Of a DNA stretch of 64,000 nt, positions 4,185-30,830 are shown in pieces. Source of the DNA: Octopus vulgaris (lineage: Eukaryota); contig OX597831.1 of assembly GCA_951406725.2 (NCBI GenBank), positions 23,374,001 to 23,438,000 of the forward strand, read 5' to 3'. Made by a program: the position numbers and the translations under genes. Below the pieces are notes generated by a model that was given only the letters and a program-made list of their open reading frames with translations, ran no database searches and was not told where the DNA came from. The stretch's first letter is position 1; every line of letters begins with the position of its first letter.

Positions 4185-4378
4185 ATCCAAACAAGAAAGC
4201 ACAAAAAAACACAACAACGCGAGGACTTGGAACAAATATAGTATTATTGGACGCTCAGGAAAGAAGGAAAGAAGGAGGGTTTAATGTTTCGAGCGGAGCT
4301 CTTCGTCAGAAACATAGGAGAAGGAAAGATCCAGAGAAGGGAAGACAGAGGAAAAAAAATCAACAACGGTACACACGA
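4183..4378 (-). mobile_element. Short repeat family P (Penelope pLTR-like) carrying a hammerhead-like motif
   Basis: Homologous to 11345-11550, 61120-61275 and, more weakly, 12730-12900. It is flanked by TA runs. Confidence 0.65.
4278..4316 (-). ncRNA. Minimal type-I hammerhead ribozyme-like motif
   Basis: Minus strand reads guuu CUGACGA a gagc ucc gcuc GAAA cauu aaac: intact core, 4-bp stem II, helix I guuu/aaac, imperfect helix III palindrome. Confidence 0.55.
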
Positions 4379-11344: not shown

Positions 11345-11550
11345 TGTTACTCCAAACATGAACAAAGAGAAAACACAATGCAAGGATGTGGAACAAGTAT
11401 AGAGTTATTGGACGCTCAGGAAAGGAAAGAAAGAAGGAGGTTTTAACATTTCAAGCAGAGCTCTTCATCAGAAACATAGAAAAAGAAAAGGTCCAAGGAA
11501 GGGAAGACAGAGAAAGAAAATCGCCAACGATACACACGTGGTCACATATT
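11345..11550 (-). mobile_element. Family P copy with hammerhead-like motif at ~11438-11478
   Basis: Minus strand guuu CUGAUGA a gagc ucu gcuu GAAA uguu aaaac; homologous to 4183-4378. Confidence 0.65.
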
Positions 11551-28561: not shown

Positions 28562-28955
28562 TGTTTCTTTATTATCCACAAGGGGCTAAACACAGAGGGG
28601 ACAAACAAGGACAAACGAATTAAGTCGATTGCATCGACCCCAGTGCATAACTGGTACTTAATTTATCGACCCCGAAAGGATGAAAGGCAAAGTCGACCAC
28701 AGCAGAATTCGAACTCAGAACGTAATGGCAGACGAAATACCTGTTTCTTTATTACCCACAAGGGGCTAAACACAGAGGGGACAAACAAGGACAAACGAAT
28801 TAAGTCGATTACATCGACCCCAGTGCATAACTGGTACTTAATTTATCGACCCCGAAAGGATGAAAGGCAAAGTTGACCTCGGTGGAATTTGAACTCAGAA
28901 CGTTAGGGCTAAACATTTCGCCCGGCGTGCTAACGGTTCTGCCAGCTCGCCGCCT
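28562..28955 (-). mobile_element. Young family H copy with a 180-bp internal tandem duplication, inserted antisense into an older H copy
   Basis: 14-bp TSD GTGGGGTCAATATA (28548-28561, 28956-28969); units at 28562 and 28742. Confidence 0.9.
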
Positions 28956-29320: not shown

Positions 29321-29540
29321 TTAACCCTGTAACATTTAAGCTGGCTATAACTGACCCAAACATGATGTCTGTACAAACTGGCCAGATCCAGCCTCTCACA
29401 TCTACTCTACAATGTCATTCTAATAATGCACAATCACATCACCGAAATATCAAAGCTACAAGATAATGCATGATTTATTCAAAACAATGGGAATAAACAA
29501 GCATTGCATTCGACAGAGTCATCTGAAAGTTAAAAGATTA
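29321..29540 (+). mobile_element. piggyBac-like MITE (TTAACCC...; other copies end GGGTTAA)
   Basis: Starts ttaaccctgtaacatttaa; the body matches 19360-19882 and 56253-56775. Confidence 0.65.
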
Positions 29541-29543
29541 GAT

Positions 29544-29702
29544 CATTATTTACATTATTTACACTATTTACATTCGACGGATATTTGTCCTCATCTTGTT
29601 TGTTGTTAACACAATGTTTTGGCTGATATACTCGCCAGCTTTCCTTAGATGTCTTTGGGAAATTTCTAACCTGGGTTCTCATTCCTAAGCTATTTTTCAA
29701 TG

Positions 29703-29755
<53 letters not shown>

Positions 29756-29848
29756 GTTGTTGTTGTTGTTGTTATTATTGTTATTGTTCAGGTCACCCCA
29801 AGATTCTGAGTTTGATTGCAAGCAGTGACTTGAACAATAATAATAATC

Positions 29849-29902
<54 letters not shown>

Positions 29903-30070
29903 GTAACATCAAAAAATACCTTAGGAATGAGAACCCAGGTTAGAAATTTCCCAAAGACTGCTGGAGGGTATATCGGCCAAAACATTGTGTTAACAACAAA
30001 CAAGATGAGGACAAATATCCGTCGAATGTAAATAATGTACATAATTCCTCATCTCTTATATATAGAACTG
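29544..30070. mobile_element. Foldback retroelement with a tRNA-like centre, (TAA)n arms, degenerate hammerhead motifs and a 13-bp TSD
   Basis: 29546-29797 is the reverse complement of ~29825-30045; TSD TAAAAGATTAGAT (29531-29543, 30071-30083). Confidence 0.85.
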
Positions 30071-30318
30071 TAAAAGATTAGATATTGACCACATATGAAG
30101 ATATAGTGGTTATATGGCTAAAATGCATTGGAAAATGTTACTTTTACAAAATATATCTGAATAGCAGTCACATATGTTGATATGATAGTTAGTACTACAC
30201 CAAAAACTAAAATACTAATTCATTATATTGGTATAATAGCTGTGCAAAATACATTGAAATACTAAAAGCATTCACAGTGAAAACTGCTTTTGCTTTCACT
30301 TGTTAATTTAAACATTAA

Positions 30319-30352
<34 letters not shown>

Positions 30353-30830
30353 GTTTAACGTCCGCTTTCCATGCTAGCATGGGTTGGACGGTTCAACTGG
30401 GGTCTGGGAAGCCCGAAGGCTGCACCAGGCCCAGTCAGATGTGGCAGTGTTTCTACAGCTGGATGCCCTTCCTAACGCCAACCACTCCGAGAGGTGTAGT
30501 GGGTGATTTTATGTGCCACCGACACAGGTGCCAGACGAGGCTGGCAGACGGCCACGCTCGGATGGTGTTTTTTATGTGCCACCGACACAGGTGCCAGACG
30601 AGGCTGGCAGACGGCCACGCTCGGATGGTGTTTTTAATGTGCCACCGACACAGGTGCCAGACGAGGCTGGCAGACGGCCACGCTCGGATGGTGTTTTTTA
30701 TGTGCCACCGACACAGGTGCCAGACGAGGCTGGCAGACGGCCACGCTCGGATGGTGTTTTTAATGTGCCACCGACACAGGTGCCAGACGAGGCTGGCAGA
30801 CGGCCACGCTCGGATGGTGTTTTTTATGTG
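30319..30830 (-). mobile_element. RTE 3' UTR with five tandem 63-bp units (30511-30830)
   Basis: (CAT)n tail; unit atgtgccaccgacacaggtgccagacgaggctggcagacggccacgctcggatggtgtttttt. Confidence 0.9.

Follow-up and report, generated by a model that had tools for sequence, protein, structure and literature searches.

What kind of element leaves two long inverted arms, each with its own simple-repeat tract, on either side of a fragment resembling a tRNA? This question is raised by positions 29531-30083 of the window, the 64,000-nt stretch of Octopus vulgaris DNA analysed here (contig OX597831.1, 23,374,001 to 23,438,000). A first-pass annotation made from the letters alone had read the locus as a tRNA-derived SINE using the machinery of a Penelope-like element (PLE). 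From sequence comparison we think it probable that the window holds a dead, two-armed pseudo-LTR copy of an autonomous Penelope/Poseidon-type element, whose tRNA-derived A/B-box head likely serves as an internal promoter for Pol III. Short RNAs are likely made from it and inserted into the genome by the RT-endonuclease of the element itself, as a SINE-like family.

The insertion spans 527 bp (29544-30070) and is flanked on the forward strand by a target-site duplication (TSD), TAAAAGATTAGAT, at 29531-29543 and 30071-30083. The 13 bp annotated earlier proved to be an exact repeat; a common 13-mer occurred in 85 of 20000 random flank pairs drawn from the window. The annotated inverted arms with (TAA)n tracts are likewise present (29554-29776 and 29833-30045, 90–91% complementary), as is the extension of about 25 bp on the right arm only, which is 25 nt long (30046-30070) and corresponds to family positions 152-176. 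On the minus strand, the left arm comprises body positions 2-151 of the family, with one 9-nt repeat unit in addition (29544-29703), a (TAA)n/(CAA)n tract (29705-29785) and the last 9 nt (68-76) of the tRNA-like head (29788-29796); its outer end is the putative tail-less priming site, and its body matches the 5′ UTR and first ∼43 codons of a Penelope ORF. On the plus strand, the right arm comprises head positions 38-76 (29795-29833), a (TAA)n tract (29836-29906) and the body (29905-30045), with the ORF start codon at 29927, and ends in the 25-nt extension, or tail, at the putative outer priming site in codon 51. The two arms are joined through a 2-nt overlap common to both (29795-29796).

The central piece, correctly described in the first-pass annotation as tRNA-like with a B box, is positions 38-76 of the family's 76-nt head; its B box (29808-29819) carries two changes, and the A box is absent from both arms. 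The degenerate hammerhead that had been noticed in the left arm is a damaged minimal type I motif (29608-29653, minus strand), with the core CUAAGGA in place of CUGA(U/A)GA and the G of GAAA lost, and the core reported as deleted from the right arm is indeed taken out by a 10-nt deletion that also shifts the frame. Since the A box and both ribozyme cores are lost, the window copy is predicted to be inactive. ARAGORN and Rfam (at its gathering threshold) called nothing in the window, so it is only by comparison with the family that the head and ribozyme of this copy can be recognised. Two tandem arrays in the window (five 63-bp units at 30507-30830 and two 180-bp units at 28562-28903) lie within other abundant repeats.

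Searches of the 2.8-Gb genome (227 contigs) returned at least 1437 candidates for the right arm, at least 1863 for the head and at least 852 for the middle. Sixty evenly spaced 10-kb stretches (600 kb) contained five loci, which corresponds to ∼23,000 genome-wide (95% range 7,600-54,000), as against a single 71-nt piece of the ORF. In fuller copies, a 76-nt head with an A box (TGGCGTAGTGG) and a B box (GAGTTCGATTCC) is followed by a variable tract of (TAA)n and then by the 176-nt body. The first-pass annotation had looked to a family consensus for a full tRNA head with both boxes, an intact CUGANGA/GAAAC core, frequent inversions and a 3′ end in common with an autonomous PLE, and each of these is found in the family. 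Both boxes are intact in the majority sequence of the head, whose best match among 26 distinct genomic tRNAs of six isotypes is tRNA-Arg(TCT) (z ∼9); the head has, however, lost its tRNA fold, as ARAGORN was silent down to its 85% threshold and Rfam gave no match. The body carries a minimal type I hammerhead, with both catalytic boxes kept in 70 of 114 arms and the whole core, including the palindromic CGUU, in 31 of 114. Its two major variants differ only at the free position N7 (69 U, 41 A), and stems I and II fold in natural copies (z −2.3); the hammerhead, known as a motif only, is a candidate self-cleaving ribozyme. Decay in the family is CpG-biased (21% against 5%), the simple repeat (TAA)n is internal, and the ends of the element are two fixed internal sites.

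Several other features of the family were recorded. A two-codon upstream ORF (ATG GCG TAG), which precedes the real start, overlaps the A box at head positions 7-15, and 10 loci have inserts of more than 150 nt inside the (TAA)n tract. The tract also serves as landing site for the 3′ ends of another LINE (L024, L049, L157), which we take from its motifs to be Dong/R4-like. A second, unrelated minimal-hammerhead family, pyrimidine-rich with a (TA)n end and no tRNA head seen, occurs on the minus strand of the window at ∼4190-4370 and 11350-11530 (cores at 4309 and 11471) and at L129, L135, L149 and L167.

The parent was found through a chance RT fragment adjoining one copy, which led to a second, decayed PLE family. 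In 49 loci selected by the ORF, the head follows the stop codon across a 29-nt spacer in all 29 copies that reach it, with no headless copy (0/29), and at 25 of 29 loci picked by the 5′ part of the ORF the tail is joined directly, in frame, to codon 52. From the stop codon the unit continues with 29 nt, the head of 76 nt, (TAA)n and a further 22 nt up to the ATG, and the 127-nt spacer from stop to ATG contains the head and (TAA)n and nothing else. The ATG is body position 23, the hammerhead occupies codons 12-24, the body represents ORF codons 1-51, and the outer ends of the repeat lie 119-129 nt and 154 nt into the ORF. Because all stop-reaching ORF copies continue into the head and the body is coding sequence, what looked like a separate SINE with a foreign tail is the pseudo-LTR of an autonomous Penelope/Poseidon-type element, made up of head, (TAA)n, hammerhead and tail; the clade label is presumptive, resting on motifs and layout. 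The annotated tie of a SINE to PLE machinery is upheld, but not as a partnership, since the head is a fixed part of the parent's pseudo-LTR; similarly, the 3′ end is shared with a PLE as had been proposed, but so is the whole element.

The coding capacity of the parent agrees with this assignment at several points. Conservation of the body peptide shows in 42% identity with the N-terminus of the homolog P0003 over 141 aa, and the PDDG encoded by the ribozyme starts P0003 and P0120 as well. The majority frame is open over 817 codons plus the N-terminus, and its protein has 1564 homologs. Its RT matches RVT_1 at E 2.7e-6, below the cut-off, with matches in 9 of 10 aligned homologs, and its GIY-YIG-like domain at the C-terminus aligns by hhalign with those GIY-YIG domains of this genome that are Pfam-positive (E 2e-5 and a probability of 77%), its direct Pfam match being weak (1 of 10, E 0.23); the GIY-YIG family search of the genome gave 150 scored matches among 6136 candidates. 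The pseudo-LTR, direct or inverted, overlaps the ORF start, and the element belongs to the EN+ PLEs. ORF copies are ∼94% identical to their majority (best 95.6%), and none of the copies seen is intact or young. The parent groups apart from the Neptune-type families of this genome, at no more than 25% identity. Neptune-type PLEs were rejected as partners, as 30 short and 20 long regions, with other hammerheads and (TA)n ends, share nothing with the element. There are several such families (L091, L092, L097, L106 and others), inserted in (TA)n and carrying a U3-A8 hammerhead variant and an optional tail of their own, and one of them has many intact 781-codon ORFs and was recently active; a PDB sequence search with a Neptune-type ORF found no match. 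Separately, L283-L303 include many short tandem derivatives in which the body and 150-460 nt of ORF are followed by a new body or head, which suggests template jumps onto RNAs with ragged 3′ ends.

To describe how the pseudo-LTR copies were inserted, we scored 93 loci, of which 29 each were selected by tail, head and body, five were random and one was the window (the self-hits L001, L031 and L171 were dropped). Foldbacks account for 58 of the 93, and 48 of these have one end at the tail (169-176) and the other at the inner site (133-153); four have no tail at either end, one has a tail at both and five have an unclassified end. Each of the 48 thus bears one tail, 25-35 nt long. The tail-selected set is biased by its own query. 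The body-selected set is free of that bias, with inversions at 20 of 29 loci and 18 of the 20 mixed (9 left, 9 right; P=8e-5 on 18/19). Inverted copies that span the ORF are mixed in 9 of 17 cases and not cleanly so in 8. TSDs of at least 10 nt flank 43 of the 58 foldbacks, as against 4 of 232 mismatched flank pairs, and 40 of the 43 measure 11-16 nt under a scoring that allows one mismatch and can add 1-2 nt; the first-pass annotation had called TSD lengths variable, and while they are not fixed, they cluster within this range rather than varying freely. The N7 variant is the same in both arms of 49 foldbacks (of 58), compared with 1892 of 3663 cross pairs (52%), and both arms are copied from the same template type. 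Most copies are single or inverted pairs, with short tandems only at some loci selected by the 5′ part of the ORF.

Mixed ends in 48 of 58 foldbacks and TSDs clustered at 11-16 bp fit a process in which both target strands prime cDNA, at two internal sites of the RNA. We infer that a single RNA is primed twice, with one site for each strand, and that the two cDNAs are then joined. The element's protein would nick both target strands ∼12-13 nt apart; one cDNA would be primed at each of the two internal RNA sites, as seen for the anole PLE in vitro; and the two cDNAs would be joined head-to-head via a few shared bases or via TGCCC-AC-GGGCA, a near-palindrome at the head start. According to the available text on the anole element (PMC11167929), its protein nicks and extends both strands, and RT starts at two internal sites that bound the tail. 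In the accessible description of their in vitro work, Frangieh et al. saw no difference between strands in the start site, so the rule of one site of each kind per insertion is without a bench counterpart; our literature search on twin priming of PLEs likewise returned no paper and no such count.

We regard it as rather unlikely that the inverted arms instead arose by snap-back self-priming, in which the cDNA or an antisense RNA folds on the 5′ palindrome. Such a process has been proposed for rotifer PLEs from palindromes at junctions (PMC3846280, available text), and it would suit the 52 of 57 copies, selected by an AC or GT centre, that retain only 2-30 nt of inverted head. However, many foldbacks, the window copy included, join far from the palindrome with overlaps of 0-5 nt, the orientation of the spacer bears no relation to which of the arms is the long or the tailed one, and snap-back alone leaves the stop of the second arm at one fixed internal site unexplained. 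Pure snap-back of a single polarity failed the polarity test, and one master foldback transcript was rejected on the independence of spacer orientation from tail side.

The 5′ ends of the arms were counted at 92 loci, where 72 arms cover the 3′ half of the head and 47 reach its start, and 33 of the 47 end at −12 to +5. The rate of 5′ ends there is 0.039 per nt, compared with 0.005 inside the head and at most 0.002 upstream of −30, which makes a pile-up of 8 to 20 times the rate elsewhere; the near-palindrome sits at this same place. Many of the ends at the head start are joined to flank, to body or to ORF nt 234-254 rather than to a mirror arm; some arms jump from head position 1 into ORF nt 234-254, which implies a template that ended there. 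Four of five full-length 5′ junctions also stop at the head start (L228, L288, L309, L310), and the fifth (L298) reads through. Longer RNAs do exist, as 14 of the 47 arms extend upstream of −12 and L298, a locus selected by the 5′ part of the ORF, is a read-through tandem. Given the pile-up of 5′ ends, short head-started RNAs probably act as a SINE of ∼2×10^4 copies. A full head is preceded, in 28 of 30 copies, by the GT of the mirror spacer and by no more than 2-24 nt of head in inverted orientation (two of the 30 are a duplicated pair, and the two full ones are already counted). These copies fit an origin from foldback copies as sources, that is, self-propagation, and not from the leader of the autonomous element, although some of the short inverted heads may be the result of later deletion. 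L434 and L435, which lie on one contig 240 kb from each other, have an identical junction sequence and are probably a segmental duplication. Of 24 public runs listed, 17 hold at least half of the query words and come from five organisms; loose ends at the tail end, the inner end and the head start occur in the assembled contigs of four runs, such contigs being unable to show RNA ends.

A distinct reading of the same ends is that short copies are the usual 5′-truncated products of full-length or tandem PLE RNA made by Pol II, that an old SINE became fixed in the spacer as the head, and that the structured 5′ edge of this head makes RT stall or switch template. In the available texts (PMC8557442, PMC3846280), it is standard for PLE copies to be 5′-truncated and to carry an inverted 3′ piece, the known pLTRs carry Pol II TATA promoters (PMC3846280), arm ends occur all along the ORF, and the near-palindrome lies exactly at the pile-up. 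Nevertheless we judge this reading unlikely: many of the ends at −12 to +5 join flank or unrelated positions, the jumps into ORF nt 234-254 imply a template end, the GT-leader copies speak against it, as does a spacer of 127 nt made of head and (TAA)n only, and a second, unrelated A/B head occurs at the same place in a relative, L311.

This relative was found among homologs of the parent taken from metagenome and MAG contigs. Twenty of their loci, about a dozen distinct families, have a readable spacer between stop and hammerhead, and L311 is the only one with an A and a B box in it. It is an intact 855-aa ORF in perfect tandem on a single metagenome contig, laid out as stop, 69 nt, A/B head, TAATAAT and an ATG inside the hammerhead. 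The A/B pattern arises in 1 of 20000 shuffles of its spacer. Its head differs from that of the parent, and there are two T4 runs in its 2795 nt. Since, in addition, a quick FastTree places a box-less element closer to the window-genome parent than L311 is, A/B heads appear to have been captured repeatedly in Penelope elements. ARAGORN and Rfam gave no relevant match for a head or ribozyme in L311 and L169, and no relative of the parent was found in viral contigs. The tail position of L311 (2219-2234) holds a hairpin like that of histone 3′ UTRs (Rfam E 0.14, below threshold), and Penelope-type ORFs with hammerheads also occur in contigs filed as bacterial or archaeal MAGs (L390-L414), probably through host contamination.

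The short copies do look like a SINE, being ∼250 nt long with A and B boxes and present at five loci in the 600-kb sample as against one 71-nt ORF piece, and one could suppose an independent tRNA SINE that took only its 3′ end from a PLE and depends on a headless partner for mobility in trans; but no headless copy exists among the ORF copies that reach the stop codon, the 3′ end is found in none of 20 Neptune-type regions, and we consider this very improbable. A MITE or other foldback DNA transposon with long terminal inverted repeats can be practically dismissed, since long inverted arms and a TSD are offset by asymmetric arms in 48 of 58 foldbacks, variable inner truncation, single-armed copies, TSDs of 11-16 bp and identity with the end of an RT-encoding element.

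If the head is a Pol III promoter of short RNAs, the same promoter may also make the full-length coding RNA, a step of which we are less sure and toward which we lean slightly negative. On its sense strand, the majority unit of 2554 nt lacks T4 runs altogether, and natural copies have 48 in 81,888 nt where 188 are expected; Neptune ORFs have 6-9 each. The absence has P=0.006 in a base shuffle, 0.023 in a synonymous shuffle and 0.06-0.10 in a dinucleotide shuffle. Related ORFs average 2.9 T4 runs per kb, yet such runs are absent from 6 of 31, among them a family whose box-less spacers are rich in T, and the parent protein is no poorer in Phe than its close homologs. These shuffle, related-ORF and Phe-content controls weaken T-run depletion as proof of Pol III, so that the scarcity of T runs is compatible with Pol III reading of the ORF without being diagnostic. 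More doubtful still is the full proposition that a Penelope coding element is transcribed end to end by Pol III from a captured tRNA promoter through an ORF purged of T runs, that the same promoter makes each intact end repeat a self-propagating SINE, and that Penelope elements acquired this design two or more times, with tRNA-like heads that differ. Should the short RNAs be made as we propose, any copy with intact boxes could become a new source, because priming would be internal and indifferent to the sequence downstream.

Compared with known systems, as far as the available text of each source goes, the parent resembles Poseidon_Ac of the anole (PMC11167929) and Adineta Pen2a (PMC3846280) in its single RT plus C-terminal GIY-YIG ORF, a pseudo-LTR over the ORF start, a hammerhead in the first codons, an inverted 5′-truncated copy, a palindrome at the 5′ edge of the repeat and a TSD. 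The optional tail lies between two internal RT starts in both cases, 111-118 nt into the ORF in the anole and 119-129 and 154 nt here. It differs from both in that the 25-35-nt tail occurs strictly once per insertion in the copies counted, and in its very many head-started short copies; moreover, rotifer pLTRs have a TATA/Inr-type promoter, whereas the spacer here is a tRNA-derived A/B-box head with (TAA)n (PMC3846280). Inverted repeats, tails and junction palindromes of PLEs are known and have been read as self-priming (PMC3846280). The hammerhead is like the minimal type I hammerheads of animal PLEs (PMC4209133), with a short stem I, an unpaired base before stem II, palindromic AACGUU replacing stem III and variation at N7 only, and shows no ribozyme difference from them; in Schistosoma, paired hammerhead motifs lie 100-700 bp apart on opposite strands (PMC4209133). 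A Pol III-type promoter and a hammerhead are also combined in the schistosome short repeats Sm-alpha and Sj-alpha, but these are tandem and SINE-like with no named autonomous parent (PMC6765202), whereas here the parent is identified and carries the promoter itself. TRIMp3 elements (Cassandra, Helenus, Ajax) likewise have a small-RNA-derived Pol III promoter in a terminal repeat, but are non-autonomous LTR elements, unlike the autonomous, non-LTR-type element that carries the head here, and their autonomous partners are argued to use Pol II and not to share the promoter (PMC10886601). Animal non-LTR retrozymes and the non-autonomous Chlamys are, like this family, non-coding hammerhead repeats derived from or moved by PLEs, but form tandem arrays without a tRNA head (10.64898/2026.07.22.740005, PMC8557442), and the available text of the retrozyme preprint (10.64898/2026.07.22.740005) makes no mention of tRNA or polymerase III. 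The arrays with a hammerhead in each unit that characterize such retrozymes are not what we find, nor are the symmetric fixed TIRs and short fixed TSDs of a MITE.

Octopus tRNA SINEs were reportedly described by Ohshima and Okada in 1994, and one named octopus tRNA SINE is 'Twitch'. The family may already be catalogued, either as a named octopus tRNA SINE or as an unclassified SINE. Recent insertions include 893 unclassified SINE families in the accessible part of PMC13282606, and no link of octopus tRNA SINEs to Penelope or a ribozyme appears in the available texts of PMC4758252, PMC3531059 and PMC13282606. In the openly accessible literature that we searched, no paper describes a PLE whose pLTR contains a tRNA or Pol III promoter; the family may nevertheless have an entry in Repbase or Dfam. 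By the definition in the available text of PMC3531059, a SINE is short (<700 bp), non-coding, dispersed and of high copy number, and the family shares these properties (∼250 nt plus the tract; 7,600-54,000 copies). It also has a head with internal promoter boxes of the tRNA/7SL/5S-derived kind, with no cloverleaf call, but its partner is a PLE, not a LINE, and it lacks the end in a simple-repeat tail. The family therefore works like a SINE while falling outside the definition.

By definition SINEs are riders of LINEs, while autonomous retroelements are units of Pol II (or of Pol I read-through). A PLE that is autonomous and has its own tRNA promoter built in would blur the line between the two and would offer a direct route for the birth of a SINE, from the end repeat of its own parent. 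If the full ORF were also made by Pol III, the question would be how an uncapped RNA is translated, and the puzzling hammerhead of PLEs would gain a testable context. The rule of one tail per insertion, together with the fixed stagger, provides a concrete and testable double-priming model for the unexplained inverted and tailed insertions of PLEs. Finally, part of the 'unclassified SINE' or 'MITE' fraction in such genomes is Penelope sequence.
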